Source: Methanobacteriota archaeon (GTDB lineage: Archaea > Halobacteriota > Bog-38 > Methanoflorentales > Methanoflorentaceae). Taken from it: 64,000 nucleotides of DNA. Shown here piece after piece: positions 38 to 62,799 of this stretch. The notes beneath the pieces are model-generated. The model did no database searches. It was given only the letters and a program-made list of their open reading frames with translations, and was not told the origin of the DNA. Position 1 is the first letter of the stretch; every line of letters starts with the position of its first letter. The DNA is taken from positions 1 to 64,000 of the forward strand of contig CAVRAO010000013.1 in NCBI GenBank assembly GCA_963719035.1, written 5' to 3'. The position numbers and the translations under genes are program-made.

Positions 38-1231
38 GTGCTCGCGATCAAAACTCAGCTCAGGTTTGTACATCTCAGCGACAGTCACTTAGGCTATCGA
101 CAATATGGATTAAAACGACGTCTGACAGACTGGAGCCGTGCAACTGAAGAGATTGTCAACTACGTCATTAAGAACAAGGTTGATTTTGTTCTGCATAGCG
201 GCGACCTCTTTAACTCAAATTTAGTTGATCACACAACCCTCATTCACGCCATCAAAATACTGAGTCCACTAAAACAAGCCCAAATTCCCTTTTTCGTGAT
301 TGATGGCAATCACGATAGGAGAAAGGGGTCTCAGAGTGACACAGCTAATAACGTGCTCCAATACTTGGAGATCGTCGACTATCTTGGCCCAGAAGAGGAC
401 AATCTCGAAAACGCGATCAGGCAAGTCGGCGACACAAATATCATAGGGCTTGGGTATCACGGCATCTATCTGCGGTCAAAAATTGAGAATTTTTTCAATC
501 AAATGCCGGATGCCCCCAATATTATCTTGTTACACGCCGCAGTTGAGCATCACGTTGCCGAAGGCCCTCCTGATATTTCATTGTCAGAGCTTGAAATACT
601 CAGACCAAAAGCTGCGTATTTGGCGCTCGGACACGCTCATAACAAGTTTCAGATAAATGACTGGATTTTTAACCCAGGGAGCCCAGAATACTACAGATTC
701 ACTGATCAGGAGTATAACAGGGTCTTTTATGACGTGGTGTTGGAAGACGGGGTAGCCGAGGTTTCAGAAGTCGAAGTTCGCAGCGCTCGCCACATGGTTA
801 GTCTCAACGTCGAGCTAGCTAGTAGCGATCAAGCAACTGAAAAGACCCTTGAATTGTTGGACAGAGAGAATAGCGACAATCAACTTGCCGACTCGCTTGT
901 TAGGGTGGTGTTCGGTGGTCAAGCCCCTCCGAATCTAAGCTTGGCCGAGTCAAAAGCAGCAATTGAGGTCCGCTACTCGCCGCTTTACTGTTTGATAATA
1001 GACAATACAGCAAATGACGAAGGCGCGTTTTCTGAAGTCGAGACGTCGATGGATGAACTTGAACTCAAGATGTTTCAACACACTTTTTCCAGCTACGCTC
1101 TGCAAGCACCAGACGTAGCTGAATTTGCGAGAGGTCTCATGAAAGAGATACTCGATACGGGCCCTGCGAGTGCCGAAGACGCCGAAATGATAGCGCAGCA
1201 CGTCTCCAGTTTTCGAAGAGAAACCCTATGA
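38..1231 (+). CDS. mre11: Mre11/SbcD DNA repair exonuclease
   Basis: Metallophosphoesterase motifs DSHLG, GDLF, GNHD, LHAA, LGHAH, NPGSPE; ATGA overlap with rad50. Confidence 0.93.
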   Translation: MLAIKTQLRFVHLSDSHLGYRQYGLKRRLTDWSRATEEIVNYVIKNKVDFVLHSGDLFNSNLVDHTTLIHAIKILSPLKQAQIPFFVIDGNHDRRKGSQSDTANNVLQYLEIVDYLGPEEDNLENAIRQVGDTNIIGLGYHGIYLRSKIENFFNQMPDAPNIILLHAAVEHHVAEGPPDISLSELEILRPKAAYLALGHAHNKFQINDWIFNPGSPEYYRFTDQEYNRVFYDVVLEDGVAEVSEVEVRSARHMVSLNVELASSDQATEKTLELLDRENSDNQLADSLVRVVFGGQAPPNLSLAESKAAIEVRYSPLYCLIIDNTANDEGAFSEVETSMDELELKMFQHTFSSYALQAPDVAEFARGLMKEILDTGPASAEDAEMIAQHVSSFRRETL

Positions 1232-3969
1232 AGATCGATAGCATTCGCCTCAGGAATATTAGGACATTCGTTGATTCGGGCGAAATCCTGTTTGGTGACG
1301 GTACGATTTCCATTTATGGGGAGAACGGCGCAGGAAAGAGTACCATTGTCGATTGTATAGGGCGGGCAATTTTCGGCTTCGACCCGCAGGGCATCAAGTC
1401 AGCGGTAATTGACCATAGAGGGACGAAACACAAGCAAGGCGTGGTAGAATATCTTCTTAGGAAAGGCGCAACTGACGGCGTAATTGAAGTCAAATTCTCC
1501 AGCAATGGAAAGGTGTTCCGCGTTGTAAACAGACTCTCTCGTGCGGCGCCGCAAACGTGGGAGCTGTATATCGACGAAAGGAATTCCAAACTGTTCGGAA
1601 AGGAGGAAATCCACCAGCGAATCATAGATGAGCTTGGCATTTCGACCGTCTACAATGATTCAGCCAGCAGTTTGTTTTCAAATGTCGTTTGTGTGCAACA
1701 AGGCAAGATCATCGATGAGTTCGAGTACAGCGCTCAAGCTCGGAAAGACCATTTTGACAGGGTGCTAGGGTTATACCGTTACAGGCAAGCCTTTGAAGAT
1801 TCGAAGCACGTCAAGAACAACTTCAAAGAACAGGCAATTAAGCAGGATGGCGACGTTCGCGTAATCAAGTCAAGCGTTGAACACCTGGAGAAACAAATCG
1901 AGAGCTTGAAGGAACACGAAGACCAATCGATTATCTTAGAAAACGAGCTCAGAGACATCGAAAAAGAAATAACTTCACTAGAGGCTCGTAAAAAAGTTTT
2001 AGACGAGTTCAGTGAAACAATCATCAACCTCGAACGCGAGCTTCGTGATGCTGAGACTCAAATAGATGCTCTGAAAAGCAATCAGAGCAATGTCGAGAGA
2101 GAACTGGCAGAGAGTCGCCACGCAAAGGAGATAGTTGAAGCCAATCATCAAAATTTTCTAGGATATAACAAAATCTCAGCTGAGCTTCAAACGGTGCGAG
2201 AGCATCTTCGACAAATTGCGAAACTTCAGGAAGACCATTTCGTCAAAAAAGGGGAATATGATCGTCTTGACAATAAAAGGCAGAACAAAATAGCAGACTT
2301 AGATACTTATCGAAACTTCAAAAAAAGAGCAGAAGAGCTCAAAAAACACTCTGACGATTATAACAAGCTTCAGGCTGAATTAGAGACGTTACAAAGTAAC
2401 CAACGGAAATATGAAACCCTCCTGGACAAACTAGACGAAAAGCAGAAAACACTCAACGAATACGATGCTAAAATCAACGCACTTGAGCTAGAACTGCGAA
2501 GTTATGACGCTCTAAAAACAGAAGCTGATCTGTTGGAGGGCTTAAACAAGGAGTATAATGACATAATCGCGCTACTGGGTGAACGAAATGGCCTAAAGCG
2601 GCAATTTGAGAAGGAATTGACAGATCTGTTGGAAGGGGTCTGCCCTTATACCCACGAAACTTGTGAGTCAATCTTGGAGCTCGGGCAAAGGCAGCAGCAA
2701 AAGCTGGAACAGATTCAACAAGATCTGGTCAAACTAGAGTCACAAAAGAAAGAAAAATCGGCAGCAATTGAGCAAGCCGCTGAAGCTGAAAAGCAACTTA
2801 GGATACTCGAAAAGAAGAAATACGAGCTAAATCTTCTAAAGGAGCAAGTTGACAGCGTCAACACCGAAATAAAACGCTTGGTCGCCGAGACTGACGTCAT
2901 AAGAGATTCTTCTGAAACAATCAAAAACACAAAAGCGCTTCTTGATGAGTTGAAACCACTCGCTGACGAGTTCAACTCGATATGGTTTAATCTTCAAAGA
3001 TTTGATGAACTTGTAATTCGGAAAGAGATTTCTGACTTCGAGGAAACGCAATCTCGACTGGTCCAAGCTCTCAAAACAATTGACGAAGAAACGGCGAAGC
3101 TTTCTGAAGCAGGTGGGAACGAAGAAAACGAAACGAGGCTTAGTCAGGAACTGCAAGAAGTGAAACCAGCTTATTATCTTTATTTAGCATCTAAAAGTAG
3201 CGCCGAGAAACTAGAAAACTTAGAGACCAGTTACGATCAACTACGCAGCAGACTTCAGAATTTGGAAGCCCAACGAGCTGAATTGGATAGCAAAGTCCTC
3301 GAAACTAAAGCGGTCTACGATAAACAGGAACACCAGCGGATCATTGAAGAGCTAGATAGGAAACAACGAGTTTTCAACGAAAAAAAAGGTATCCTGACGC
3401 AATTACTCAAACAGATTGATCAAGAAAAGTTAATCGAAAGCGACGTTAAAGAGAAAAAAGAAGATCTAATGGTCGCTGAAGTCGAACTTACTGAAATTGA
3501 ATCCGACGCTACATTTTTTGACGAGGTTCGCGCTAGTTTTAAGAAATTGAGTTCATTACGTCCCGTCTATACGAGAGAGATAAGCAAGCACGCAGAGCGG
3601 TACTGGTCAAGTCTCGTCGGCGCAGGGTCTCAACTGTTTTGGCAGGAAGATTACCTAATCTTCAAAACAATAAATGCTAACGTAATTTCGCTGTACGAAA
3701 TGAGTGGTGGCGAGAAAATATCGGCGTGTCTCAGCGTTCGCCTGGCGCTTCAGGAAGTTATCGGCGGACTCGGCCTTTTCATTCTTGACGAACCTACAGT
3801 ACATCTTGATGAGGAACGCCGTAACAACTTGGCTAGCCAAATAGGTGCAATTAAAGGACTGAGCCAAGTCATCGTCATAAGCCACGACGATGCTTTCCAT
3901 TCGCATACTAGGCAGCAAATCACAATTCAAAGAGGATCTGAAGGTAGTGGCAGCTCTGTTGAATGGTGA
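1228..3969 (+). CDS. rad50: Rad50/SbcC SMC-family ATPase
   Basis: Walker A GENGAGKS, Q-loop VQQG, long coiled coil with central CPYTHETC, signature MSGGE, Walker B ILDEPT, H-loop ISHD. Confidence 0.93.
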   Translation: MKIDSIRLRNIRTFVDSGEILFGDGTISIYGENGAGKSTIVDCIGRAIFGFDPQGIKSAVIDHRGTKHKQGVVEYLLRKGATDGVIEVKFSSNGKVFRVVNRLSRAAPQTWELYIDERNSKLFGKEEIHQRIIDELGISTVYNDSASSLFSNVVCVQQGKIIDEFEYSAQARKDHFDRVLGLYRYRQAFEDSKHVKNNFKEQAIKQDGDVRVIKSSVEHLEKQIESLKEHEDQSIILENELRDIEKEITSLEARKKVLDEFSETIINLERELRDAETQIDALKSNQSNVERELAESRHAKEIVEANHQNFLGYNKISAELQTVREHLRQIAKLQEDHFVKKGEYDRLDNKRQNKIADLDTYRNFKKRAEELKKHSDDYNKLQAELETLQSNQRKYETLLDKLDEKQKTLNEYDAKINALELELRSYDALKTEADLLEGLNKEYNDIIALLGERNGLKRQFEKELTDLLEGVCPYTHETCESILELGQRQQQKLEQIQQDLVKLESQKKEKSAAIEQAAEAEKQLRILEKKKYELNLLKEQVDSVNTEIKRLVAETDVIRDSSETIKNTKALLDELKPLADEFNSIWFNLQRFDELVIRKEISDFEETQSRLVQALKTIDEETAKLSEAGGNEENETRLSQELQEVKPAYYLYLASKSSAEKLENLETSYDQLRSRLQNLEAQRAELDSKVLETKAVYDKQEHQRIIEELDRKQRVFNEKKGILTQLLKQIDQEKLIESDVKEKKEDLMVAEVELTEIESDATFFDEVRASFKKLSSLRPVYTREISKHAERYWSSLVGAGSQLFWQEDYLIFKTINANVISLYEMSGGEKISACLSVRLALQEVIGGLGLFILDEPTVHLDEERRNNLASQIGAIKGLSQVIVISHDDAFHSHTRQQITIQRGSEGSGSSVEW

Positions 3970-4205
3970 GATTGGACCGCCGCTTGAAAAGCTAAACTGC
4001 TTGAGAATTACGCCTTTCGCATATACGTAACAACAAAACGCCATAAGAAAGGGATCTGAGCAGTCACGCTAAAGTGGTCGACCTTTAGACAATTTTAGGG
4101 ATAACAAGCCTTTTTATAGGTCTTAGTGTCACGTAAATGTCGCGTCAAAGTTGGCCTGCGAGGCTCTCATGTTTGTGAGACTATTTGCAGGTGGTATTTT
4201 CGCAG

Positions 4206-4264: not shown

Positions 4265-4909
4265 CTAGAGGACCGCGAACTTACTATCTAAAGCTTCTTC
4301 AAACCGCTTATTAATCCTCTCCCAATTGACGATATTCCAGAACGCTTCGACAAATTTCGGTCGTTCATTCTTGTAATCAAGATAGTAGGCGTGCTCCCAA
4401 ACGTCCAGCACCATTACGATATAAAAGCCGGTATACACATTGACGTTGTGCTTTTCGATCTGCATTATGGCGAGCTGTTTAGTCTGCACATCGATCGCAA
4501 GTGCTGCCCATCCAGAACCCTCAGTGGTTGCTGCTGCTTTGCTGAACTCCGCCTTGAACTGGGCAAAGCTGCCAAATTCCTTGTTTATGGCATCTGCGAG
4601 TTTACCTGTAGGCTCCCCACCGCCACCTCTTCCAGCAGGCGCTAGTGTAGGCCAAAAGATCGAGTGTAGTTGATGGCCGCCAATGTTGAAAGACAACTCT
4701 TTTAGCATAGCCTTAATGTCAATCTCTGCTTTGCTCTTTCGTGCTTCGTCAAGCTTTTTAAAAGCAGCGTTTGCCCCGTTTACGTACGCGAGATGGTGTT
4801 TGTCGTGATGAATCGTAAGTTGTTGTTCAGAGATATATGGCTCTAAACCGTTGTAGTCGTAGGGCAATTTTGGCAAAACATAGGCATTGTCTGTTTCCAT
4901 AGGTTTCAT
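4265..4909 (-). CDS. sod: Fe/Mn superoxide dismutase
   Basis: [30 protein letters not shown] motifs. Confidence 0.97.
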
Positions 4910-6074: not shown

Positions 6075-8588
6075 ATGGTGCGCTATCCGGCGTTTTCTGC
6101 GCCAACAGAAGAAGAAAAGGTTTTTCCAGAGCTGCTGATACGGATAAGTCTCGAAGGCCGACACGTGGAGTTTCACTCCAGTGAAAACTACGTAGCAGGT
6201 GCACCATCGCGGTTTCAGGCACAGTGCAGACAGGCGATCGATCAGTTTCAACGGGATTTCGCCACGTGGGTCTCAATGAGCCGATCGCCCCGAGGGCCGC
6301 CGTTAAACGTGACCCTAACGGCTAATGCTCGTGCTCTCATGGATGAAACGGATAACGTTGCGTTGGCGAGTGTTGACAACGACGTTGCTTTTGTAAGCTA
6401 CGCATTATTGCGCGACGCGGTACCTGTCGGGTTCCGACTCGGCGTGTTTGAGAGCTTGTTCGGTTTTTTGGCCCGAGAAGACAAAAACGGCGAGAAACTT
6501 CTTCAGGGACTCTCGTTGCCTCTTCTTGTCGAACAGGTTAACGTGTTACGAACGCCGGAGCGTTATGGCATTTTTGCAGATAGAGACTGGTTGAACCTCT
6601 TACAGGCGCATTTGATTAAAGAAAATCCACGGCTGGGCGCGCAAGCGGGGCTGCACGCTGCATCAGCGCCCACTTCTTCCAGCAATCTGATATCACCGTC
6701 ACAAGCGGGAGGAGTGGAGCTTTCAGAGACACAAAAAAGACAAATAGCAGAATTAGCCGCGAGAAACAAGATGGACAAGACGCTTCTCATTCAGAAGATG
6801 CACACCTTGCTCACAATCATCTCGACGGGATTGGGAGAAGATGTTGATATTAAAATCGTTCCTGGTGAATGGTGGGCCTACGACTATGAAACCAACACAA
6901 TAACGTTCCCCCTTCTCGACCTCATCACTGCACCACCGGACAAAATCATAGGCTCACTGTTGCATGAAATCGGCCATTATCAGATAACGCGCGTGGACAA
7001 AAAAAATCCGACCTTCAGACGACTTCTTTCGACGGAATCGTTGCGATTGCTCCTCAACGCGTTTGAAGATCCGCGAGCAAGCAACTGGATGAAAGCCACG
7101 TTCGCTGGAACCACGCGTTATCTTGAACTAATTTACGACGATCTCCTCTCTGAAGACCTAACGTCGACTTCTTACAGTTATAAACTGCAAAAGGAGATCC
7201 AAAAAAGCTCCAATTCAACGATTCAGGCTTATCAGGAGCTCCCCCATCTTGAGTATCTATTATCTGTCCTCTACTTTTGGCGGTTTGGCAGACCCCCTTT
7301 ATACTTTATTAACCCAGAGGTGAGGGCGACTTTCGAGACCACCGCTCCGTTCTTTGAATCTATCTTCACTCATTACCCTCGTGGCCGCGCGTCAGAGCAA
7401 GAAAAGCGTCGTTATGCACGGGAAGCAGCTGAAAACGTGCAGAAGCATATTTTGGAGCCTTACGAAAAGTTGCTCATAAAGAGTGCTGAAAACCTCACTC
7501 TTGGGATTGAGCGTGGGCAGCAACCGCTCGGCGACGGTGAGAACCCCTCTGAGATCAATTTTCAGCAACTGGAGCAAGAGGGGCAAGAGATTCTAGAAAA
7601 AACATCAAAAGAACTTGCTGATCGGCTTTCCGCGAAGCGCGCTGTGCCTGCTTCACTTGAAGCTAATTCCATTGAGAAAAGAATTGGGCAAAACAGAGAC
7701 AGCAGTGAACACGTGCGAATTTCCCCAGAAAAGCCGCACTCTGAGTTCACCCGCCGAGATCTTGTCGCTCAGCGTCGACGCCTCCAATTCGAACGCAGCA
7801 CAGAGACGAACGAATACAACAAGGCGTTTGCTGCGGTATCAGGATTGCTGCAGATACTCGTTGGTACACTGGAGAATGTGCTTACGAAAAACCGCAAGCC
7901 AAATTACGAAGGCTACTACCCTTCCGGCCAAAAACCAGATTTGCGCCGAGTGATGGATGTTACGCGAAAAATACAACAGGGGTTACCAACGACTAAGAAA
8001 GATTTCGACGTGTTTTTAAAGCGCCGGCGGCCAACTCACTTAGATCACCGAATTATGTTGCTCTTAGACGAATCAGGTTCAATGCAGGAGCCAAAACGAA
8101 CTGCTGCGTTACAAGGGGTCTTGCTCTTTATGGAAGCGTTCGATTATCTTGGGATTGACTACGCGATCATCGGCTTTGCGGACGCGCCCATCGTCCATAA
8201 GCCGTTTGGCGACAATTTCACCCAGCGTGAACGCGAGCACTTATTTGAGGACGTATCTCAGTTCATTCCTTTTGGGGCGACGGCAGATGCTGACGCCCTA
8301 GCCCTGGGTATTGAGCTTTTCGAACGAGAACCTGAAGATGTTTATCGTCTCATAATCGTCGTCTCAGACGGTGAGGGAAACGTCAATAGTACTGGTCTTA
8401 CCTTTAAGGAACTGCAAGACGTTGCTGAAACGAAATCTATTCAGGTGGTTGGGATCGGTATAGGAGAACATGTCAAATCAATACATACACGTTATGACCG
8501 TCCGATACAAGTCGCGACAGTTGACGAATTGCCTAGGACACTGGGCAGTGTGCTTGAGCAAGAGGTGATCGCAGATTCGTTACACTGA
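6075..8588 (+). CDS. HExxH-containing VWA/MIDAS domain protein (CobT/midasin C-terminus-like)
   Basis: LLHEIGH...NAFEDPR in the middle; C-terminal VWA with DESGSM (DxSxS), conserved T (GATAD) and D (VSDGEG). Confidence 0.85.
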   Translation: MVRYPAFSAPTEEEKVFPELLIRISLEGRHVEFHSSENYVAGAPSRFQAQCRQAIDQFQRDFATWVSMSRSPRGPPLNVTLTANARALMDETDNVALASVDNDVAFVSYALLRDAVPVGFRLGVFESLFGFLAREDKNGEKLLQGLSLPLLVEQVNVLRTPERYGIFADRDWLNLLQAHLIKENPRLGAQAGLHAASAPTSSSNLISPSQAGGVELSETQKRQIAELAARNKMDKTLLIQKMHTLLTIISTGLGEDVDIKIVPGEWWAYDYETNTITFPLLDLITAPPDKIIGSLLHEIGHYQITRVDKKNPTFRRLLSTESLRLLLNAFEDPRASNWMKATFAGTTRYLELIYDDLLSEDLTSTSYSYKLQKEIQKSSNSTIQAYQELPHLEYLLSVLYFWRFGRPPLYFINPEVRATFETTAPFFESIFTHYPRGRASEQEKRRYAREAAENVQKHILEPYEKLLIKSAENLTLGIERGQQPLGDGENPSEINFQQLEQEGQEILEKTSKELADRLSAKRAVPASLEANSIEKRIGQNRDSSEHVRISPEKPHSEFTRRDLVAQRRRLQFERSTETNEYNKAFAAVSGLLQILVGTLENVLTKNRKPNYEGYYPSGQKPDLRRVMDVTRKIQQGLPTTKKDFDVFLKRRRPTHLDHRIMLLLDESGSMQEPKRTAALQGVLLFMEAFDYLGIDYAIIGFADAPIVHKPFGDNFTQREREHLFEDVSQFIPFGATADADALALGIELFEREPEDVYRLIIVVSDGEGNVNSTGLTFKELQDVAETKSIQVVGIGIGEHVKSIHTRYDRPIQVATVDELPRTLGSVLEQEVIADSLH

Positions 8589-8592
8589 CTCG

Positions 8593-11500
8593 ATGAAAAA
8601 CAGCGCTATAAGCGACGCTCAACGGCATTCTCAAACAACCGAAGATCGATTTAGCGACGAACTTGGCGCGTTAATCGCCCGTGTGTACCTTAAGCTCAAG
8701 CAAGACTTTCCCGAACTGTTCACAATTAGAGACCTAAAACGGGCGACTGAGGCACTGACGTTATTTTTGGAATCCGGCTTATCAGAAAAAAATGCTTTTG
8801 TTGACGTATGTCAATATGCTTTTACGCAGATACAACCAGAGAGTGAGGAGATAGTACGATCGATAATAGAACAAGATAAAAACATTAAAGCGGTGTTGCC
8901 GGATTTTGAACCTCGAGATCTGACGTCGCTAACTCCTAGCCTTCCTGCACTCGCCACGTCTATTTCTGCAGGTCTTAACTCTTTTTTGCAGATTCTTGTA
9001 ACCTATAGCGAGAGCCCTACTGCCAAAGCGTTGCTTACCATGCTTAACAACTTGGTGAATGCAACGGATAAACAAACCCGGATCACTGCACGGAAAATCG
9101 CCTACGACTTGCTTTTTGATGATTCTTTGCGCGATATAATCTTAGAAGAATTAGAAGAGAACTTGACTGATGCGGCTTGGACCGCACGCCAAGCGGCCGT
9201 CGTCGTTCTTGCCTCGTTGTTTTGCGACCGGATTAGGAACGGAAAACAAATCGACTTGTATCTCTTTGAAACGTTGCTTCATGATAATGCATGGGCAGTG
9301 CGTCAAGCTACTATCGAAGCGCTGAGCAATATCTATCCGACCCTTATTCAAAAAGACATAGATGTCGATCTCAAAGGGCTTGAAGCCGCCCTTCAAGATC
9401 GGTCGTGGGTGGTACGCAAAGCAACTATGAGCGCGCTGAGCCGCGTCTACGCAGCACGCATTGAACGCGGAATCAAGACAGACGTTGCCCCACTAGAGCG
9501 CCTGCTCACCGATCACGACACGGAGGTCCGTCAAGCTGCTTTAGGGGCGTTGGGTGACGTATACGCACTGCTCATCAAGCGTGGCGAGGACGTTGATATC
9601 GCTGCCCTCGAGGCAGAGGTAGCACACCGTGACGAAAAAGTTCAGATGGCGCTCATAACTGCCCTTGGCAATATTTATGTCGCGCTACTCGATCGCGAGG
9701 TCGTAAGCTCCCTGTCAAAAGTTGAGCGCGGCATTAGCAGCGAGTTTCTGGGAGTGCGTAAGACAGCAGCTGCAGTTTTAAGTGTGGCGTATCCCGCGTT
9801 TATCAGACGCGGAGAAGCGATTAACTTAGAACAGATTGAAATGGGGTTGGATGGGCTTATTGATTACATCCGGCAAGCAACAATCGAGGCGCTGGGCATT
9901 ATCTACCCAGCGCTGGTCGAGGTTGGCGTCCAGGTAGACCTGCCCCGCTTGGAAACCGGGCTTCACGATGAATACTGGGCAGTGCGTCAAGCTACTATCG
10001 AAGCGCTGAGCAATATCTATCCGACCCTTATTCAAAAAGACATAGATGTCGATCTCAAAGGGCTTGAAGCCGCCCTTCAAGATCGGTCGTGGGTGGTACG
10101 CAAAGCAACTATGAGCGCGCTGAGCCGCGTCTACGCAGCACGCATTGAGCGCGGGATCCCGACAGACATCTCGTTGCTCCAGCACGTTCTTTCAGAACCA
10201 AACGATGAGCTTCGTCGGATTTCAGTAGAGGCGCTGAGCCGCGTCTACGCAGCACGCATTGAACGCGGAATCAAGACAGACGTTGCCCCACTAGAGCGCC
10301 TGCTCACCGATCACGACACGGAGGTCCGTCAAGCCACCATCGAAGCATTTGGCTTGATCTATCCCGTAATTCTTCGAACCACGACGTCCTTTATAAGGGT
10401 CAAAAAACTAGAGAGATCCACGCATGACAAACAAACGAAAAATCGCATCACAGCGGCTAAAGCTCTTGGCGAAGTCTACGCGGCACTCATTGAGTGCGAG
10501 AAAGAGCCTGATATAGCACCACTGCAACAGCTCCTAACTGATAACGACTCAGACGTGCGTCAGGCGGCCGTCGAAGCGCTGGAGCGAGTATACCTGAGAT
10601 ACTTCGATAAGGGCAGGATCTTGAATTTACACTTGTTGGAACAAGTGTTAGATGACAACGCTGCTGAAGTTCGCCGTGAGGCCCAAAACCTTTTCAGAAG
10701 CGTCGCGCATGCGATGCTCCTTGGATCAGATAAGGGGGGGTTTGAAGCGACGATCCGCGAACTGGGTGAGGAACTTAGCACGTCTCTGTCTGCGCCGCTG
10801 TCTGGCACTTATTTGCCTTATATTCAGTTGAGGGGGGACTCCCTTCAAGTAGGTCCCCTGTCTATGCAAAAAAGGACGCTGCATACCAGTGCTCAGCAGT
10901 GCATTGTAACGAAGGCTGCGTATGAGATGCTTAATGCGATCGCTTCAGCGTTTCTTTTGAGACATCCGCTTTTGCTGATGGGTCCGACGTCTACTGGCAA
11001 AAGTTTCTTGATAAAATGGTTAGCCGAGACACTCGGTTATGAGCATATGTCTTACACGCTCAACCCGTACGTTTCTAAGTCAGAACTCATAGGTGGCATA
11101 AAACCGAACAACCAAGGTAAGTTCGTCTGGCAGGATGGAATCGTTTTAAAGGCAGCCAAGCGCGGCACTTGGCTTGTTCTTGAGGAGCTAAACCTTGCGA
11201 CCTCTGAAGTCCTCGAGATACTGAATGATTACTTGATTACTGGCAAATTTGTCTATTCAGAGAATGGCGATCAACGTCTTGTCGAGCCGTCGGGCGAATT
11301 CCGGCTGTTTGCCACAGCGAACCCGTCAAGTTACGCGCAGCGGGAGCGACTTTCACAGGTGTTTGTGTCGCGGTTCAAGGTCCAGTACCAAAGGGAGCTA
11401 AGTGAAGAGGACTTGATTGAAATTCTAAGCGGGTTGTTCGGCATCCCCGCTCATTTGGCCTACTCGATCGCGTTTTTTCACGTTACCTTGCAGGAACAAG

Positions 11501-12387
11501 CTGATTCGAAAGTCATTGGCAAGGAGGAAAAGGAACCATACATATTCAGTTTGCGAGATTTGATTCGGCTTGGAAGGCGATTGTCCCCCGCTATAAAAAC
11601 GAATGTGCCCGAACCTGTGTTTATGCGCCTCCTCGGTATAGAATTGGCTGATGTTTACGTAGCACGCGTGCGAAACCGCGACGAACGGGAAGGTTTGATA
11701 ACGCTCATTGACACCATCTTCGGCGTCAACGCAGAGGGCAGCAGCGGTGAAGACGCGCCCATCGTCCCCTCTGAACAGCTGGAGCAGCTACTCGCTGACT
11801 TGCCAGTAACAAGGGGTCGTCACTTCATTCCAGGCGACGAAGCTCGAATCGTGCCGACGGAAACGCAGAGACACACACTCGTAAGCGCGCTTAAAGCTCT
11901 CAAGTTCGATGAGCCGATCCTTCTAGTTGGTTATCCTGCTTCGGGAAAAACGACGTTAGTAAGGTACCTTGCGCGGGAGAAGAAGACTGATCTGTACTAT
12001 GTGAACCTTTCATCAGATTCCGGTCTTGAGGAGCTCTTGGGTGGCTTTACGCAAGACACTCGTGGCAAATGGCGCTACAAGCGGGGCCTCCTCTTTAAAG
12101 CCGTTAAAAGCGGTGCGTGGCTTTTAATCGACGAGGCGAACCTTAACCCTCTCTCTGAGTACCTCAACACTCTGCTAGACTTCGGTTACATCACAGACGA
12201 TGAGGGTACCATATTTGAACTACATCCTAATTTCAGATTGTTCTTTTCTATCAATCCGCCGAAAATCCACCCTTCGAGAAACGTGCTCTCCCCTGCGCTG
12301 CGCACCCGATTCAACGAGATCTGGATTCAGGAGATAACCGATGTTGCAGAACTATCTGAATTGGTCGGTAGGTGGAAGCGTGCTTGA
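8593..12387 (+). CDS. HEAT-repeat protein with two tandem MoxR/midasin-type (AAA_5) AAA+ modules
   Basis: ~14 HEAT repeats; AAA1 GPTSTGKS/LVLEE/FATANP/SRF; AAA2 GYPASGKT/LLIDE/FSINP/LSPALRTRF; starts 4 nt after the VWA gene stop. Confidence 0.88.
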   Translation: MKNSAISDAQRHSQTTEDRFSDELGALIARVYLKLKQDFPELFTIRDLKRATEALTLFLESGLSEKNAFVDVCQYAFTQIQPESEEIVRSIIEQDKNIKAVLPDFEPRDLTSLTPSLPALATSISAGLNSFLQILVTYSESPTAKALLTMLNNLVNATDKQTRITARKIAYDLLFDDSLRDIILEELEENLTDAAWTARQAAVVVLASLFCDRIRNGKQIDLYLFETLLHDNAWAVRQATIEALSNIYPTLIQKDIDVDLKGLEAALQDRSWVVRKATMSALSRVYAARIERGIKTDVAPLERLLTDHDTEVRQAALGALGDVYALLIKRGEDVDIAALEAEVAHRDEKVQMALITALGNIYVALLDREVVSSLSKVERGISSEFLGVRKTAAAVLSVAYPAFIRRGEAINLEQIEMGLDGLIDYIRQATIEALGIIYPALVEVGVQVDLPRLETGLHDEYWAVRQATIEALSNIYPTLIQKDIDVDLKGLEAALQDRSWVVRKATMSALSRVYAARIERGIPTDISLLQHVLSEPNDELRRISVEALSRVYAARIERGIKTDVAPLERLLTDHDTEVRQATIEAFGLIYPVILRTTTSFIRVKKLERSTHDKQTKNRITAAKALGEVYAALIECEKEPDIAPLQQLLTDNDSDVRQAAVEALERVYLRYFDKGRILNLHLLEQVLDDNAAEVRREAQNLFRSVAHAMLLGSDKGGFEATIRELGEELSTSLSAPLSGTYLPYIQLRGDSLQVGPLSMQKRTLHTSAQQCIVTKAAYEMLNAIASAFLLRHPLLLMGPTSTGKSFLIKWLAETLGYEHMSYTLNPYVSKSELIGGIKPNNQGKFVWQDGIVLKAAKRGTWLVLEELNLATSEVLEILNDYLITGKFVYSENGDQRLVEPSGEFRLFATANPSSYAQRERLSQVFVSRFKVQYQRELSEEDLIEILSGLFGIPAHLAYSIAFFHVTLQEQADSKVIGKEEKEPYIFSLRDLIRLGRRLSPAIKTNVPEPVFMRLLGIELADVYVARVRNRDEREGLITLIDTIFGVNAEGSSGEDAPIVPSEQLEQLLADLPVTRGRHFIPGDEARIVPTETQRHTLVSALKALKFDEPILLVGYPASGKTTLVRYLAREKKTDLYYVNLSSDSGLEELLGGFTQDTRGKWRYKRGLLFKAVKSGAWLLIDEANLNPLSEYLNTLLDFGYITDDEGTIFELHPNFRLFFSINPPKIHPSRNVLSPALRTRFNEIWIQEITDVAELSELVGRWKRA
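9163..10710 (+). repeat. Array of ~14 38-aa HEAT-like repeats containing exact DNA duplications
   Basis: LxDxxWxVRQAxIEALxxIY consensus every 114 nt; 9292-9464 equals 9976-10148 and 9433-9536 equals 10231-10334. Confidence 0.9.
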
Positions 12388-13075: not shown

Positions 13076-14245
13076 TTAATTACGACGCCTTCGAGCGCGT
13101 GAGAGGCTGAGGCCTGCCACAACTGCGACAGCGACTGTGATTGGCACTGCGAGCCAAACTAAAAGCTCCTCGCTGTCAAACGCGTTCATATGGTCGTTAA
13201 GCGTCCCGCCGTGTGCCATCTCCTGTGAGAGGACTCGCAGGTTTGAGGCACTTGATGTGTGGATTACGCGTAAAGCTGAAGTATCGTGCAAAATGATTGC
13301 ATCGGAAGAGTCGTTGATAACCACGCGTCTATTATCACCGACGGCAGACGTATAAGTCAGTTTGTTTGGAATATCAGCCGAGTCTCTACCTACGGCCTCG
13401 CGCACGTGATGATCGTCAACAAAGCCTAGCGTTTTTTGCGGTTCATACGGTACCCACCCTATGTCGGGGTAGAATACCTCTATCCAAGAATGCGGCCCAG
13501 ACTCCCATTGATACCCGTAAGTTGTTGCATATCCATCTACGTTGATCTCGCCATCGACTAGATAGCCACTTACGTAGCGAGCTGGAATTCCGACACTCCT
13601 TAGCAGCGCCAACGAGAGGTGCGCATAATTCTCGCAGGTTCCCCGTTTGTTGTGATAAGTCCAAGATGCATCGTGTTTTGTCACGTTGCTGTCGTATTTG
13701 AGGTTGTCACTGACCCAGAGCATCAGAGATGTCACCGCTGCGCTCTCATAGCGCGTATTATTGACGATTGCTTTCGCTGTGTTTGCAATATCACGGTCTT
13801 CGGACTGAACAGAGGTCGATGGCGACAGATACTTGGTAGCGCCCTCCTCGCTACTGGGGAGCTTGATCGGCAGCTGTGATTCCGAATTCAATCCATTGAC
13901 GTTTACATCAATCGTGAAATTGGTGTTCGTTGTATAGCTCAGCTTTGAGGGCGGGTTAGTCCACGTAGCACTAATCCCTCCACTAGTCACCGTGACGGCA
14001 TCGGGTTTCTTGCTGTATGAAATATTCGCGGATTCTATTTTTAGCGAGTATGCGAAGACCGTGGCATTCGATGCGCTAGTGAGCTGCACTACTAAATTCT
14101 GAGTTCCGTCGGGAACCGTGAGTTCTCGCGTTTTCACATAATGCACCGAACTCATCAGGTTGCCTTGACAAACCAACGCGTCTCCCGATCCTTGGAGCGG
14201 TATCAAAAAAGCAATCACGATTAGCGCACAAGCAACAAGCTTCAT
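13076..14245 (-). CDS. Secreted, membrane-anchored transglutaminase-like protein
   Basis: Signal peptide from ATG 14245; GTCENYA, GIPARYVSGY, HSWIEVF (triad C-H, with E in place of the usual D in PYEP); C-terminal TM helix + RRRR. Confidence 0.85.
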   Translation of the reverse strand: MKLVACALIVIAFLIPLQGSGDALVCQGNLMSSVHYVKTRELTVPDGTQNLVVQLTSASNATVFAYSLKIESANISYSKKPDAVTVTSGGISATWTNPPSKLSYTTNTNFTIDVNVNGLNSESQLPIKLPSSEEGATKYLSPSTSVQSEDRDIANTAKAIVNNTRYESAAVTSLMLWVSDNLKYDSNVTKHDASWTYHNKRGTCENYAHLSLALLRSVGIPARYVSGYLVDGEINVDGYATTYGYQWESGPHSWIEVFYPDIGWVPYEPQKTLGFVDDHHVREAVGRDSADIPNKLTYTSAVGDNRRVVINDSSDAIILHDTSALRVIHTSSASNLRVLSQEMAHGGTLNDHMNAFDSEELLVWLAVPITVAVAVVAGLSLSRARRRRN

Positions 14246-14367
14246 TTGGAGGCGTAAGTACAATAACGGGACAGTGCACATAAATTTTTTTTGCACGCAC
14301 ATAAAGGTTGTGGCTGTGGCTCGTCTGTTGATGCCACTTTGCGCGTTAGGTTTTTGAGCCTTGAAGG

Positions 14368-14505
14368 CTCGGCTAGATAGGGGACACGAGGGCCGTGAAG
14401 CCACTTATCGAAGCCTTGATGAGCGGAACAGGCGCAACTCCACGCCAGGCCGTCGAGGGAGCTCTGCAAAAGCTGGCCGGTGCAAAGGACGCCGAACTAA
14501 TGTAA
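14368..14505 (+). pseudogene. Remnant of a PBS-lyase HEAT-repeat gene
   Basis: Frame reads LG*IGDTRAVKPLIEALMSG...VEGALQKL with an in-frame TAG and no start codon. Confidence 0.5.
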
Positions 14506-14760
14506 CATCAAAAAGGAGAGCCAGAATGGACGGCCGCCCGATCTTAGCACGAAGCGCGACCGCAATGGCGGGACGCCAGCGTTTGACGTTAAACACGAAC
14601 GCTGTGCATCCGAACCGGGCGCACCTGTTCACTGTATGACGTTCTGTTTTTTGAGATCGTCGCCGACTTACGTCCGATGAATCGAAACGATTATAAGCAT
14701 TGCTTTAGCCAATTAGGTACGTCGTTTTACCCTACTTCTGACATATGTGGAGGCAGACAA

Positions 14761-16123
14761 GTGTTTAAGCGAATCTTTCTTCTGATTACAGTTGCGCTGT
14801 TGTTGGTCGCATTTGCAGTCGCTCCTGCAATCGCCTTGCTACCTAACGGGCAGCAAGCTCCGAACTTTCAGTTGGCAGATCTTTCCGGCACGATGCACTC
14901 GCTGACCGACTATCGCGGCAAGGTCGTGGTCATTGACTTCTTCAGCGTTAGCTGCAGTGCCTGCAAAAGCAGTGCCACGAACGATCTAGTCCCCCTATAC
15001 AACAGTTACTACCGCGATGACGCGCGAGTTCAGTTCCTGGGCATCGAGGTAAGCGGCGCCTCTGCAGCGGAGACAAGTTCTCAGTTTGTAAAACCTACCG
15101 GCATCACTTGGCCCGTCTTGGTCGGGGGAACATCAAATCTTCTTAACTCGTACGGTTCTACCAGTGTCCCGACGGTCTATGTCCTTGATTCTGCTGGAAA
15201 AGTCGCCCTTGCGACAACGTCAATCGACAGCAGTACTTTGAAATCTACGATCGACAAGCTTACAGGCTCAGGTTCAGGCACAGGCACCGGCCCTGCCGTT
15301 TGTTCACAGGATGCAAACAGCCTCGATGTCTTTGTGCAGGGCACCGACCACGCGCTCTGGTATAAACACCTGGATGGCGCGAGCTGGGGATCGTGGAAGT
15401 CCCTCGGAGGCGTCCTGACGTCAGACCCCGCTGCCGTCTCCCGAGGTGTAGGCAAGATCGACGTCTTTAGCCGCGGCACCGACGGCGCCCTCTGGTCGAG
15501 GTATACCACGGACGGAGGCGCCACCTGGTCCATCTGGTACAAGATCGGTGGGCAGCTCCTCGCTGGCACCGGCCCGGCCGCATACGAATGGGGGGATGCA
15601 CGAATCGGCGTAGTAGTCACCGGCACTAACCGCGCCCTCTATCACATATGGAGACGCAAGCGGCCCATGGTCCGGCTGGCAAAACCCCGGCGGGTACCTC
15701 ACCTCGTCACCCGCCGCGACGTCACTGGCTAGCGGCGTGATTGACGTCTCTGTCCGTGGCGGCGACGGTGCCCTCTACAAGATGCATTACTCGGGAGGCG
15801 TCTGGGGCTCGTGGTCCAAGATCGGCGGGCAGCTCCTCGCAGGCACTGGTCCTACCGTGTACAACTGGGGATCAACCCGGACGGGCTGGTTCGTCACCGG
15901 CACGAACAACGCTCTCTATCACACGTGGAACGACGGCACGGCGCACGGTTGGGAAAACCTTGGCGGGTACCTTACCTCCTCACCGGGAGCCATATCGAAG
16001 TCGGCGGGTACGATCGACGTCTTTGTCCGTGGCGGCGACGGTGCCCTCTGGGGGAAGTCCTACGCTTCTAGCTCTGCCAACGGGTGGGGAGCTTGGTCTG
16101 AGATTGGAGGCCAACTCGCTTAA
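14761..16123 (+). CDS. Secreted TlpA/redoxin domain fused to Trp-rich lectin-type beta-propeller repeats (frameshift at ~15652)
   Basis: GTG start after GGAGG; signal peptide; APNFQL...FFSVSCSAC; repeats DVFVRGxDGALW...WxxLGGxLTSxP continue across the frameshift (DASGPWSGWQNPGGYLTSSP). Confidence 0.8.
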
Positions 16124-59438: not shown

Positions 59439-60381
59439 GACGTGTACGACAAGCCCCTGCTCTCAATCGCCCTGGCCCGCCGAATCGCCCCGGAAAAACT
59501 CATCAAGGAAACCGGGGCCGACGCCGCCCGTCGCCTGAACGCGCGCCTGCTGGCCCACACGCACGCCATCCGGATCTGCAAGGACACTCAGCAATTGCGC
59601 ACCACGCGCGGCACCCTACGCTACGACCAGCTGGTGCTGGCCCACGGCGCGCAGGCCGCGCTGCCCCCCGCCCTGCCGGCAGCGCTGTGCTGGCGCATCA
59701 ACCACCTGGGCGCCTACCTGCAACTGCGCGCCGTGCTCGGCGAGGCAGCAGTCACGGGGCCGAAAGACGTGCTGATCGTCGGCGCCGGCCTGATCGGCAG
59801 CGAACTCGCCAACGACCTGGCCCTGGGCGGGCACCGTGTCACCCTGCTCGACGTTCAAGGCAGCCGCTGGCGCGCTGGCGCGCGGACAAGGCCGGCGCAC
59901 AGGTGCTGCAGGCCTGGAAAGGCTGCCGATCCGTTTCGTGGGCGAGGTGAAGGTGGCCAGCGTCGAGCGCCTGGCGCTGGACGCCGAACGACTCTGGCAA
60001 CCCCTGCCCGCAGGCACCGCCTGCGCCGGGCAGACCACGCGGTTGCGGATCACCACCGAATGCGGCCAGCACTTCGCCGCCGACGAGGTGATCGTCGCCG
60101 CTGGCCTGCAGACCCCGAGCCGTCTGGCCCGAAGCGCCAATCTGGCCTGGGCCGACGGCATCGCAGTCGACCCCCACACCCTGCGGACCAGCGATGAAGG
60201 CATCCACGCGATGGGCGACTGCGTCACCCTCGACGGCCAGGCCAGCCGCTACATCGAGCCCATCGCGCGCCAGGCCAAAACCATTGCAGCGGCCCTCACC
60301 GGCTGCGAGCCCATTCCCTATGAGGCAAGGACCGCAGTGATTCGCGTCAAGACCACGTCGATGCCGCTGACGCTGCATTGA
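59439..60381 (+). CDS. FAD-dependent rubredoxin-NAD(+) reductase-like oxidoreductase (5'-truncated, frameshifted)
   Basis: YDKPLLS, YDQLVLAHGA, GAGLIGSELANDL, AMGDC, YIEPI, VKTTSMPL. Confidence 0.8.
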
Positions 60382-60572
60382 GCCGGGTTCCGGACAACGG
60401 CACGGCGGGTTTGGCGGCCACAACGCGGGGACGAACACCGCCAGATGGCGGGTGTGAAGAGGGCTCTCCCGACTCCAAGACTCACTATTGAGCCAAAAGA
60501 GCCCATACCGGCTGCCAAATAGTCACCATCTGCTATCATTACGTGAGCATCCTTGGGGCCGGCGTGCGGTGC

Positions 60573-61015
60573 TCAATATTCCTTGTACGGAAGGAACTTG
60601 CCCGACAGCACCACGTTCACCCGGTCGCCCTTCGGGTCGGGCTGGCGCACGATGTCCATGCTGAAGTCAATCGCGCTCATGATGCCGTCGCCGAACTCCT
60701 CGTGGATCAGTTCCTTGATCGTGGTGCCGTAGACGTTGACGATCTCGTACCAGCGGTAGATCAGCGGGTCGGTCGGCACGGACGTGGGCAGCGAGCCCTT
60801 GTAGGGCACGACCTGCAGCCATTCTGCTCCTCGGCGTTCAGGCCGAAGATCTTGCCGAGGATCTTGGCCTGCTCCGGGCTGGCGGTCATCTGGCCCAGGC
60901 ACAGCGCGGTGGTCCATTCCTTGGACTGTCCGACTTTCTTGGCGACGTCGGCCCACTGGATGCTCTTGGCAACCTTGGTGCTGATGATTTTTTCGGTGAC
61001 TTCCAGTCGGTTCAT
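60573..61015 (-). CDS. cynS: Cyanase (frameshift at ~60825)
   Basis: [10 protein letters not shown] ... [31 protein letters not shown]. Confidence 0.93.
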
Positions 61016-61064
61016 GGGGTGCTCCTGCTTTTCTTGAGGGTTGGGGTGATGGAGGGAAACGAGT

Positions 61065-61902
61065 TCAATGCGCAGTTGCGCGCGTCACGAGGAAGTCCAC
61101 GACGTGATTGCGGAAGTCGTAGTAACCGTCCAGGTGGTGCAGGCTGGCGCGGGTGCGCTGGCGGGGCAGCGGGTTGTTTACGACTTCCGCGATGCCACCA
61201 GGCACATAGCCGGTGCTGGTTTCACTGCCGTTGCTCATCAGCAGGATGCGGTCAGCCAGCAGGATGGCCTCGTCCACGTCGTGCGTGATCATGAAAACCG
61301 TCTGATGCGTCTCGCGCACGATGGCCATCAACTCGTCCTGAATGGTGCCGCGCGTGAGCGCGTCCAGCGCGCCGAAGGGCTCGTCGAGCAGCAGCATCTT
61401 CGGCTGGATGGCAAATGCCCGCGCGATGCCGACGCGCTGCTTCATGCCGCCGGAGAGTTGCGAGGGCTTCTTGTCGATGGCGGCGCTCAGGCCCACCATC
61501 GCGACGAACTTCTCCACATGCCCGTTGACCTTGGCCGCCGGCCACTCGGGCCAGCGCGACTTGACGGCAAACGCGATGTTTCTGCGCACCGTCAGCCAGG
61601 GCATCAGCGCATGACTCTGGAACACCACGCCGCGCTCCAGGCTGGGGCCGGAAACTTCACGGCCGTCCATGAAGACGTTGCCGGAAGTGGCCGTGTCCAG
61701 CCCCGCCAACACGTTCAGGATGGTGGTCTTGCCGCAGCCCGAATGGCCGATGATGCAGACGAACTCGCCGCGGTCCAGCGTGAACGACACATCGGCGAAC
61801 ACCGGCTTGGCGGCGATGTAGGCCTTGCTGAGTTTTCGATCTTGAGGAAGCCGTCCACGGTGGGGGTCTTCTTGGTGTTGCGCCGGAGGCGGAAAGTGCC
61901 AT
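61065..61902 (-). CDS. Cyanate/nitrate ABC transporter ATP-binding subunit (CynD/NrtD-like; 5' frameshifts)
   Basis: GHSGCGKT, LSGGMKQRV, LDEPFGALD, THDVDEA. Confidence 0.88.
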
Positions 61903-61933
61903 GGGCTCCGCGTGCGCGGCGCGCGAGGGGACA

Positions 61934-62797: not shown

Positions 62798-62799
62798 GC

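Follow-up and report, generated by a model that had tools for sequence, protein, structure and literature searches.

A two-gene archaeal locus pairs a MIDAS protein with a HEAT-repeat ATPase whose tandem AAA modules resemble those of midasin

Midasin and dynein are single chains that carry six different AAA modules, and the origin of such rings is unsettled. A pair of adjacent archaeal genes raises this question on a smaller scale: do prokaryotes hold the parts of a midasin in shorter, separate chains, and how might those parts be put together? The pair lies in a stretch of 64,000 nucleotides (positions 1 to 64,000 of contig CAVRAO010000013.1, assembly GCA_963719035.1, from a member of the Methanoflorentaceae), the whole of which is referred to here as the window. 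The upstream gene encodes P0001, a protein that ends in a von Willebrand factor A (VWA) domain with a metal ion-dependent adhesion site (MIDAS), and the downstream gene encodes P0002, in which an array of HEAT repeats is followed by two AAA modules. A first-pass annotation, made from the sequence alone, had read the pair as a candidate split mini-midasin. Its homology claims hold, and sequence comparison supports the assignment of the AAA modules to the midasin type and not to the ordinary MoxR, CbbQ or CobS type. What it proposed about oligomeric state and function stays a matter of inference, with comparative support.

The basic architecture is as annotated. Both open reading frames (ORFs) are present (Table 1), separated by 4 nt at a junction that reads TGA-ctcg-ATG, with the P0002 gene in a different frame. 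Pfam places VWA (3.6e-9) and VWA_2 (2.2e-9) at residues 660-801 of P0001, the DESGS motif is found at residues 665-669 (window 8067-8081), and the MIDAS residues D665, S667, S669, T736 and D765 are invariant in 17/17 aligned homologues, so that the MIDAS VWA domain is intact. In P0002 the HEAT repeats (HEAT 1.4e-38, HEAT_2 1.6e-31) number 14 in an exact 38-residue register, where about 14 had been claimed, and AAA_5 is matched in two stretches (129 bits, window 10966-11376 and 11914-12312), giving the two tandem AAA+ modules. The motifs that had been likened to midasin are all in the translations, GPTSTGKS, WLVLEELNLA, FATANP and FSLRDL in P0002 and LENVL...YEGYYPSGQKPDLRRVM...VFLKRRRP...IMLLLDESGSM in P0001. 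In the scans with Pfam and NCBIfam, no NCBIfam model reached its cut-off for either protein. The host genome comprises 2.19 Mb in 13 contigs and is 91% complete; the description of the DNA as archaeal holds because this genome encodes McrA and because the sources of homologues name Halobacteriota, Methanomicrobia or Methanobacteriota archaea. Three features go beyond the first-pass annotation, namely an HExGH domain in P0001, a 237-residue N-terminal extension specific to the window's genus, and an AAA2 lid that appears to be split.

The two AAA modules of P0002 are compact, at 163-166 residues, and align end to end. AAA1 has the Walker A motif GPTSTGKS in an intact P-loop, an invariant E864-E865 in place of the D-E of Walker B, the sensor-1 residue N910, and R927. 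AAA2 has GYPASGKT, a canonical Walker B at D1180-E1181, N1221, and R1237/R1239. Between them lies a lid that matches AAA_lid_7, the 'Midasin AAA lid' (PF17867), with E 1.3e-13 and 51.6 bits at a cut-off of 22.7; a genome scan returned the same coordinates, and the family is matched once in the host genome and in 0/14 control prokaryotes. Among the best 25 of the 41 Pfam families matching, AAA_3 does not appear, and the genome's own MoxR is a separate gene (G000:C2:751531-751920, 192 bits). The AlphaFold2 (AF2) model of the same-genus orthologue P0021 has a mean predicted local distance difference test score (pLDDT) of 79.9.

Searches outside the genome lead to midasin. With phmmer, P0002 matched midasin best among all PDB chains (6or5_A, E 8e-115, seven stretches), as against 3.6e-7 for CbbQ, 1.4e-5 for NorQ, 7e-5 for CobS and 1e-4 for dynein. 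The best midasin stretch, at 95.6 bits, pairs residues 771-1151 of P0002 with residues 874-1231 of Mdn1 and is collinear from an AAA module through its lid into the P-loop that follows. Scored with a hidden Markov model (HMM) of both window modules, midasin AAA3 gave 75-122 bits; in four other archaeal genomes, no AAA_5 protein exceeded 46 bits. A HMMER scan of residues 740-1264 against 1.84 billion representatives retrieved 816 proteins at E ≤1e-30, led by the family itself, then by a few giants of 3157-7557 residues at 34-40% identity, and then by proteins of ~2000-6000 residues at 29-34%; three of these last, whose names were looked up, are eukaryotic, two of them being called midasin, and the rest are taken as midasins. 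Foldseek of the full-length ATPase model against the PDB gave only dynein heavy chains, with query TM-scores (TMq) of 0.17-0.21 and root-mean-square deviations of 35-71 Å, which reflects a poor global superposition of a multi-domain model.

The placement of the modules was examined in trees of AAA large domains. The family itself contributed five to eight members and the giant or partial prokaryotic relatives six; six midasins were added, together with the six-module archaeal protein P0122 and the best AAA_5 proteins of four other archaeal genomes. The midasins comprised P0132 and P0133, so named by their sources, P0180, which is as long as the Schizosaccharomyces pombe chain, and P0090, P0142 and P0166, recognised by their six-module layout. 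In the careful tree (74 of 99 rows, 175 columns, LG+C20+F+G4, two partial modules dropped) the midasin-type modules together with P0122 are split from eight ordinary archaeal AAA_5 proteins at 96/93, so a nesting in ordinary AAA_5 that would have spoken against midasin is not seen. The window modules are placed with midasin AAA2-6. Window AAA1 groups with the first modules of the giants P0124 and P0125 (100/99), and window AAA2 with their second modules (100/99), which defines an A and a B type. The midasin modules fall into separate eukaryotic clades, one for each module, with ultrafast bootstrap values of 98-100, and none of these clades includes a prokaryotic module. Where the A and B types of prokaryotes meet midasin AAA3+5 and AAA2+4+6, the backbone is a polytomy, on which two quick trees conflicted, and because of it the first-pass reading of the pair as an intermediate between MoxR and Rea1 stays conjectural.

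A deep homology of the A-type modules with midasin AAA3 and AAA5 was considered and is not claimed: in addition to the conflict between the quick trees and the polytomy, an approximately unbiased (AU) test of these modules as one clade gave p 0.069, for a group that had been chosen after the trees were viewed.

The second half of the comparison concerns P0001. A single-sequence search of the PDB found nothing at E 0.01, and a profile of seven stand-alone homologues matched CobT (2.6e-6) and the MIDAS domain of Rea1 (6qt8, 3.3e-6). The 6qt8 match spans 144 columns and includes the pre-VWA segment, profile positions 562-705 aligning with residues 31-171 of 6qt8 at E 4.7e-6. Foldseek of the P0001 model against the PDB placed the MDN1 MIDAS domain first (8ql1_A, 2.6e-8, TM-score by target (TMt) 0.71) and 6qt8 next, followed by the VWA domain of NorD (1.3e-7) and then by integrin I domains, the margin of midasin over NorD being small. 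The VWA domain is closest to midasin, just ahead of NorD, and the suggestion that the segment before it is also midasin-like is borne out by the same alignment and folds. That segment contains many invariant residues, including G613, G618, Q619, P621, D622 and R650, and by analogy with NorQD and midasin, as set out in part of one account (PMC13036017), it may be a pore contact. A fold search of BFVD aligned the P0001 model over 650-800 columns with phage 'CobT-like' VWA proteins, with E down to 1e-15, among them proteins of haloarchaeal tailed viruses and ORF892 of ATV; P0001 therefore has a CobT-like layout.

Upstream of the linker, P0001 carries HEIGH at residues 297-301 (window 6963-6977) and an ED motif at residues 331-332, and H297, E298, G300, H301, E331, D332, R334 and W338 are invariant in 17/17 aligned homologues. 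In the AF2 model (mean pLDDT 66.7, about 75-95 in the VWA and HExxH parts) three strands form a sheet ahead of the HExxH helix, at pLDDT 78-95. The region is consistent with a zincin-like layout, and a peptidase activity may be presumed from it. Its neighbours in the ESM Atlas, at 0.96-0.97, are phage proteins of ~190-200 residues, to be taken as a lead; one neighbour cluster is auto-named M48 peptidase and another has CobT in 15% of its members, both likewise unconfirmed leads.

Do the two proteins belong together? In the sister genus they are one chain: P0038, of 1874 residues, aligns with residues 238-836 of P0001 at 51% identity and then with residues 27-1264 of P0002 at 47%, in the order HExxH-VWA-HEAT-AAA-AAA. 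A scan of one genome per species found 52 loci, 43 of them in the family, with record titles that name archaea, Syntrophales/Syntrophaceae, Desulfofervidaceae, Omnitrophota, a Planctomycetia metagenome-assembled genome and others. Wherever upstream sequence was available, an HExxH-VWA unit stands immediately upstream (33/33 family loci, the remaining 10 of 43 being cut by contig ends), either as a separate gene, as in the window's genus, the Desulfofervidaceae and one fragmented locus (12/33), or in the same ORF, as part of a protein of ~1800 residues (21/33). The pair is co-conserved across genomes, and the two genes are one system, probably as two halves of one machine.

Within its archaeal family the ATPase is present in 19/23 genomes, the four misses being 59-67% complete. 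The window's genus has it in 14/17 genomes, with complete frames of about 1272 residues in the split form, and the other genus in 5/6 genomes, with complete frames of 1875-1884 residues in the fused form. At E 1e-30 it was found in 0/57 genomes from 20 other families of the phylum, and the midasin lid occurs in 20/301 genomes sampled across the phylum, all in this one family. The two genera, g1 (the window's) and g2, stand at 47% to each other and each at 42-48% to the bacteria, a similarity of distances because of which the direction of transfer between archaea and Syntrophales is not readable. The fused forms of Syntrophales (P0042, P0046, P0049 and others) have a Lys-rich C-terminal tail of ~45 residues ending in KR(F/Y)TH(Y/F)(S/T), and the archaeal proteins do not have this tail. 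Two further loci, L087 and L089, are titled 'Candidatus Acidiferrales bacterium' and 'Candidatus Bathyarchaeia archaeon' and carry archaeal-type copies, the best segment of L089 being 94% identical to P0021 of the window's genus; the titles are likely to be binning mislabels. In one further same-genus genome the VWA gene is apparently interrupted (L065:3545-5527, G003:C94), its ORF stopping at 661 residues before the VWA domain, and two tblastn pieces point to a frameshift or pseudogene or to an assembly error.

One peculiarity of P0002 bears on how its chains might meet. The protein ends about 17 residues past the arginine-finger motif of AAA2, where a lid is expected to begin; the last residues form a helix (1179-1189 of P0021 in the AF2 model). 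At the other end, the N-terminal sequence ..LIARVYLKLKQDFPELFTIRDLKRA.. is similar to ..EPYIFSLRDLIRL.. in the distal part of the AAA1 lid, residues 41-94 match positions 46-99 of the 104 of the midasin lid_5 family PF17865 weakly (E 0.097), and hhalign of family alignments puts the fragment in register with the AAA1 lid at E 0.002. Y32, R46, L48, K49 and R50 are invariant in 29/29 P0002 homologues, and the stand-alone homologues all start at the N-terminal lid motif and end at the same C-terminal helix. The junctions that follow B-type modules within longer relatives (P0124, P0125, P0119 and P0128) join the two pieces: in 6/9 a match to the P0002 C-terminus is followed by a match to the N-terminal TIRDL within about 10-80 residues, as in P0125, where residues 3932-3960 match the C-terminus and 3968-3995 the N-terminus. 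A complex prediction of residues 1-110 with residues 740-1264 scored 0.51, the best of three controls scoring 0.00, which is weak support: the mark was reached by 58/80 solved complexes and 2/110 mismatched pairs in the benchmark, scores of ≤0.60 being given to only seven of those 80 complexes and to both passing mismatches, and these counts hold only roughly for a prediction that used a custom alignment. The runs agree in at least 75% of contacts, with a partner pLDDT of at least 76. We conclude, as far as sequence signals can tell, that the AAA2 lid is divided between both chain ends of P0002; its closure would then probably take place between chains, as a trans-complementation.

The giants that appear in the scan and the tree supply the other line of comparison. 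P0124, P0125, P0126, P0128, P0129/P0266 and P0131 are proteins of 3157-7592 residues with four to six midasin-type AAA modules; they sit on contigs of 20-512 kb, most carry an HExxH-VWA tail, and they are closer to P0002 than are the eukaryotic midasins. The 4471 residues of P0124 include six AAA_5 stretches together with midasin lids and TPR spacers, and a VWA domain lies at the C-terminus. The modules are arranged as three nearly identical A-B pairs, separated by spacers of some 640-680 residues. Its tail, residues 3743-4368, matches residues 243-833 of P0001 at 30% identity and E 1e-72. P0128, named 'AAA family ATPase [Thermoproteota archaeon]', P0126, P0131 and P0266 have six modules followed by HExxH and VWA. 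Single chains of what read as exactly three two-module units and one adaptor tail thus exist in prokaryotes. A literature search of full texts, without their supplements, turned up no account of tandem AAA proteins of midasin type in prokaryotes, of the present architecture or of six-module prokaryotic giants, and the first-pass view that the architecture is undescribed stands to that extent, an earlier mention being possible.

P0122, from another family of the phylum (genome G024, L050:3778-13560), has 3261 residues and six AAA_5 modules of two alternating types. Its Walker B contexts are MoxR-like, DE(V)NRA/NKT, and the chain includes a WD-like insert and an HExxE-like region and ends in a MIDAS VWA domain. 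Its match to midasin, 4e-26 in total, is much weaker than that of P0002, and P0001 matches its VWA tail at E 1e-10; the protein seems to have arisen by a concatenation of its own, with a VWA tail that is related.

A passage of Zhang and Aravind (2012, PMC3495828) has MoxR as the closest prokaryotic homologue of the modules of dynein and midasin. It is conceivable, although we hold it to be doubtful, that the two-module family and the six-module giants are instead the prokaryotic stock of the midasin ring, and that the ancestral motor was a lid-clasped trimer of A-B units. If that were true, the concatenation of three protomers and a MIDAS adaptor tail would have given a midasin-like single-chain ring already in prokaryotes, overturning the view, as expressed in that passage, of single-module MoxR as the closest prokaryotic relative and of six-fold concatenation as a eukaryotic invention (PMC3495828).

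How might the pair work? Probably P0001 and P0002 form a machine of the MoxR/midasin AAA-VWA class that remodels or processes proteins, driven by ATP and acting through the MIDAS site. P0002 would be the motor, with its AAA modules of midasin type. The C-terminus of one protomer would pair with the N-terminus of the next, completing the AAA2 lid and bringing R46 to the sensor-2 position, and three protomers would complete a midasin-like planar ring with six AAA modules, from which three 14-repeat HEAT arms would project; that these arms might select substrates is a conjecture of the first-pass annotation. As the adaptor, P0001 would hold the target protein by an acidic residue at its MIDAS site and dock on the ring through its pre-VWA segment. 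ATP hydrolysis would in this way exert a pull on the target, and the part drawn out might be cleaved or clamped by the HExGH domain. The most economical reading appears to be a planar ring built of three protomers. It is favoured because of the three-unit single-chain relatives and the collinear match to in-plane midasin neighbours; the split lid and the giants with three tandem units favour a three-protomer ring without showing it.

Several observations weigh against this picture. The second module type of P0002 has no helix-2 inserts, whereas midasin AAA2, AAA4 and AAA6 have them, the even modules of midasin being split at HMM position ~70-75. The VWA unit comes first, as a separate upstream gene or N-terminally in fused forms, so that midasin has the opposite order. 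With its E-E Walker B, AAA1 may bind ATP without hydrolysing it. The outgroup of the tree contains no bona fide bacterial CobS, NorQ or RavA, nor the genome's own MoxR, which the module HMM does not pick up at E 0.01. As to the split lid, the lid_5 match of 13.4 bits lies under the cut-off of 22.7, hhalign assigns the N-terminal match a probability of 14%, this match is absent at 3/9 junctions, and the complex prediction gave no interface, so that neither a seating of the N-terminal fragment on AAA2 nor closure in cis or trans can be read from it. The HExxH region has no Pfam match up to E 10, no PHROG match and no PDB sequence match, and its assignment as a zincin is drawn from motifs, predicted topology and a language-model lead; Foldseek of the P0001 model likewise gave no family-level fold match for it. 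Finally, no conserved third gene runs across lineages among the neighbours examined, so that these offer no pointer to a substrate.

Three other explanations have to be set beside the three-protomer remodeller. The main functional rival is a chaperone for metal or cofactor insertion, of the CobS/CobT, NorQ/NorD or Mg-chelatase kind, by which a target metalloenzyme would be opened without proteolysis. P0001 lends itself to this: CobT is its top PDB profile match, CobT_C reaches 21.1 bits at a cut-off of 21, the matches in BFVD are to phage CobT-like VWA proteins, and the NorD VWA domain is the next fold match after midasin. A DUF4213/DUF364 gene ('putative heavy-metal chelation'; Pfam was run on two of these genes) also lies 3' of the fused gene on the same strand in 13/14 fused bacterial loci examined, its start overlapping the stop of the fused gene in several, including L073 (L073:9429-10196). 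These 13 loci, of Syntrophales type, are, however, syntenic close relatives and not independent events, and DUF364 has 0 matches in the 91% complete genome of the window. P0002 points away from chelatases, since its AAA modules are far closer to midasin than to CobS or NorQ and it scores 26.5 bits with TIGR01650 (CobS) and 21.5 with TIGR02442 (a cobaltochelatase subunit), where the cut-offs are 558.55 and 779.45. To our knowledge chelatase systems also have no counterpart of the HExGH domain or the HEAT arm, and we regard this explanation as unlikely.

Two tandem AAA modules per chain are otherwise a hallmark of type II unfoldases, and six P0002 protomers might, like p97, ClpB or NSF, stack into a double ring that threads its substrate, a role that would suit the proteostasis-type neighbours in the archaeal family (Hsp20, superoxide dismutase, peroxiredoxin). 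The arrangement of AAA1, lid and AAA2 is nevertheless collinear with midasin modules that neighbour each other in the plane of the ring, AAA3 to AAA4 and AAA5 to AAA6; relatives concatenate exactly three units, or six modules, five of them with a single VWA tail as in midasin; a lid split across the termini fits head-to-tail ring closure; and the known AAA+ proteins of the helix-2-insert clade form single rings. Stacking accordingly seems improbable to us. Less probable again, and by some distance, is a role in anti-phage defence or conflict of the MoxR-vWA (VMAP-like) type, in which the HEAT array would do the sensing and the HExxH domain would be the effector; defence was one of the roles that the first-pass annotation had named as possible. 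The bpMoxR family PF20030 is indeed matched at 29.3 bits with a cut-off of 27, vWA proteins with HEAT or TPR arrays are reported from such systems in a section of Kaur et al. (2020, PMC7159879), the HEAT array of P0002 varies in repeat number and carries a recent internal duplication, and the patchy spread of the family over phyla suggests lateral transfer. The AAA_5 score of 129 bits is, on the other hand, far above that of bpMoxR, and no conserved third component, nuclease or other effector was seen among the neighbours examined. PADLOC has no match for P0001, and for P0002 it has weak generic HEAT/P-loop matches, of which the best (3.3e-8, 29 bits) covers 65 of 1972 profile positions. Defence islands tend to differ from one close relative to the next, whereas this system is found in 19/23 genomes and is syntenic in one archaeal family; its near-universal, syntenic presence there argues for a housekeeping or stress role rather than defence.

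Table 1. Parts of the P0001/P0002 locus and the gene upstream of it, with positions in the window
Feature	Residues	Window position	Strand	Basis or remark
Hsp20 gene, upstream of P0001 gene		5186..5707	+	Pfam; not counted as part of the system
P0001 gene: N-terminal extension, HExxH domain, helical linker, MIDAS VWA	837 aa, ATG start	6075..8588	+	ORF, translation, Pfam, alignments
N-terminal extension	P0001 1-237	6075..6785	+	Limited to the window's genus
Predicted zincin-like metallopeptidase domain	P0001 238-480	6786..7514	+	Motifs, AF2 topology
Conserved pre-VWA segment (LENVL..YEGYYPSGQKPDLRRVM..VFLKRRRP)	P0001 597-657	7863..8045	+	Candidate ring- or pore-contacting element
VWA domain, intact MIDAS	P0001 658-830	8046..8564	+	Pfam, invariant residues, Foldseek
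P0002 gene: lid fragment, 14 HEAT repeats, AAA1, midasin-type lid, AAA2, C-terminal lid helix	1264 aa, ATG start	8593..12387	+	ORF, translation, Pfam, AF2 model of same-genus orthologue P0021
N-terminal AAA-lid fragment (..LIARVYLKLKQDFPELFTIRDLKRA..)	P0002 ~20-95	8650..8877	+	Proposed second part of AAA2 lid; candidate sensor-2 R46
HEAT array, 14 repeats of 38 residues	P0002 184-715	9142..10737	+	Register, Pfam
AAA1 large domain	P0002 770-935	10900..11397	+	Pfam, module HMM, invariant residues
Midasin-type lid of AAA1, SLRD motif (R988)	P0002 940-1045	11410..11727	+	PF17867 AAA_lid_7
AAA2 large domain	P0002 1085-1247	11845..12333	+	Pfam, module HMM, invariant residues
C-terminal helix	P0002 1248-1264	12334..12384	+	Proposed first helix of AAA2 lid; protein end

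Two parts of the proteins vary among relatives. The N-terminal extension of P0001 consists of a small alpha/beta part, with an AF2 pLDDT of about 75 at residues 10-130, and of a disordered Ser/Ala-rich stretch, below 50 at residues 135-214; as a tblastn query it matched only loci of the g1 type, and it is absent from the fused P0038. The HEAT array contains a 300-nt direct repeat (9253-9552 and 9937-10236, 83% identity), which marks a recent internal duplication, and a stretch HD..WAVRQATIEALSNIYPTLIQKDIDVDLKGLEAALQDRSWVVRKATMSALSRVYAARIERGI is found twice in P0002. Orthologues of P0002 range from 1137 to 1275 residues, so that the number of HEAT repeats is in flux.

The surroundings of the pair differ between lineages. 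Within the window's genus Hsp20 lies upstream, and a 185-residue ORF and a convergent transglutaminase-like gene lie downstream; the Hsp20 synteny extends over five g1 loci and is absent from three g2 loci. The 185-residue ORF has no Pfam, PHROG or PADLOC match and is unrelated to the ORFs downstream of homologues, and the transglutaminase-like gene has no PADLOC match. Genus g2 has a peroxiredoxin gene downstream, and in the Desulfofervidaceae the neighbours are UvrC or ribonucleotide reductase. Other genes of the window include a pair of Mre11-like phosphoesterase and Rad50/SMC-like ATPase (38-3969), an Fe/Mn superoxide dismutase (4265-4909, minus strand), the transglutaminase-like gene (13076-14404, minus strand) and an AhpC/TSA-like gene (14677-15732), and the flavour of the neighbourhood is one of stress and repair. 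Far from the pair, at 60001-64000, the G+C content rises to 0.64, compared with about 0.45-0.56 elsewhere in the window, and this segment holds no rRNA or other Rfam family. A scan for sigma-70 promoters and terminators found fewer sites than in shuffles and is not meaningful for an archaeon.

The system shares features with several known machines and coincides with none of them. With midasin (Rea1/MDN1) it has in common AAA_5 modules with an NLA-type Walker B context and midasin-type lids, the best PDB sequence match of P0002, a MIDAS VWA domain whose flank is included in the best fold and co-best profile match, and two alternating module types, which in relatives amount to six modules and one MIDAS tail per chain. 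It differs in having two modules per chain and not six, in the division of the AAA2 lid between its termini, and in possessing an HExGH domain and a 14-repeat HEAT arm, P0001 finding no match in a 4717-residue midasin at E 1e-3; nor was a midasin linker match or a D/E-rich region detected in P0001 or P0002. As a prokaryotic system it can have no role in nuclear ribosome export; the removal of UBL-domain assembly factors from pre-60S particles by midasin is likewise a eukaryotic and nuclear function. The giants P0124, P0126, P0128, P0131 and P0266 share the A and B module types (100/99 with P0124 and P0125), the midasin lid, and an HExxH-linker-VWA module at 26-32% identity over the C-terminal part, but they have three units per chain, a C-terminal VWA tail and an unsplit lid after their B modules, and P0124 has TPR in place of HEAT spacers.

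Likeness to the smaller systems lies mainly in the pairing of genes. As in NorQ/NorD and CbbQ/CbbO, an AAA+ gene and a VWA/MIDAS gene are adjacent, the NorD VWA domain being the second-best fold match, and an element of the VWA protein that engages the ring pore is likely to be a shared principle, on the part of the NorQD account concerned with it (PMC13036017). NorQ and CbbQ are nonetheless single-module homohexamers of about 270 residues with weak similarity to P0002 (3.6e-7 to 1.4e-5), and these systems are without the HEAT array, the HExxH domain and the midasin-type lid. MoxR proper also has a VWA partner adjoining its ATPase, comparable to the 4-nt gap here and the 33/33 loci, but consists of a single module of ~300 residues in a homohexamer, where P0002 has two modules in 1264 residues. 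CobS/CobT and the phage CobT-like proteins resemble P0001 in layout, in that an N-domain, linker and VWA domain follow one another as in the phage proteins, and a segment around VWA strand 1 is common to P0001 and CobT; P0002 differs by its two midasin-type modules and HEAT array and by scores far under the cut-offs of the CobS and cobaltochelatase models, and no cobalamin genes lie near the locus. The ternary MoxR-vWA systems (VMAP) have a third component, such as a beta-propeller, FtsH or iSTAND, and none is conserved near P0001 and P0002.

To the AAA-VWA class the pair adds an HExGH domain on a MIDAS adaptor, a periodic 14-repeat HEAT arm, and a terminus-split lid that may act as an assembly clasp. 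P0001 and P0002 are the closest small prokaryotic look-alikes of midasin, the eukaryotic ribosome-assembly motor. At 837 and 1264 residues they are small and soluble-looking, about a quarter of the size of midasin, and their ATPase modules, lid and MIDAS domain each have midasin as nearest relation; some carriers are thermophile-associated bacteria such as the Desulfofervidaceae. With relatives that hold one, two or three copies of the two-module unit per chain, the steps from an oligomer to a concatenated ring are open to experiment, and the pair could help to show how the six-part ring of midasin originated.

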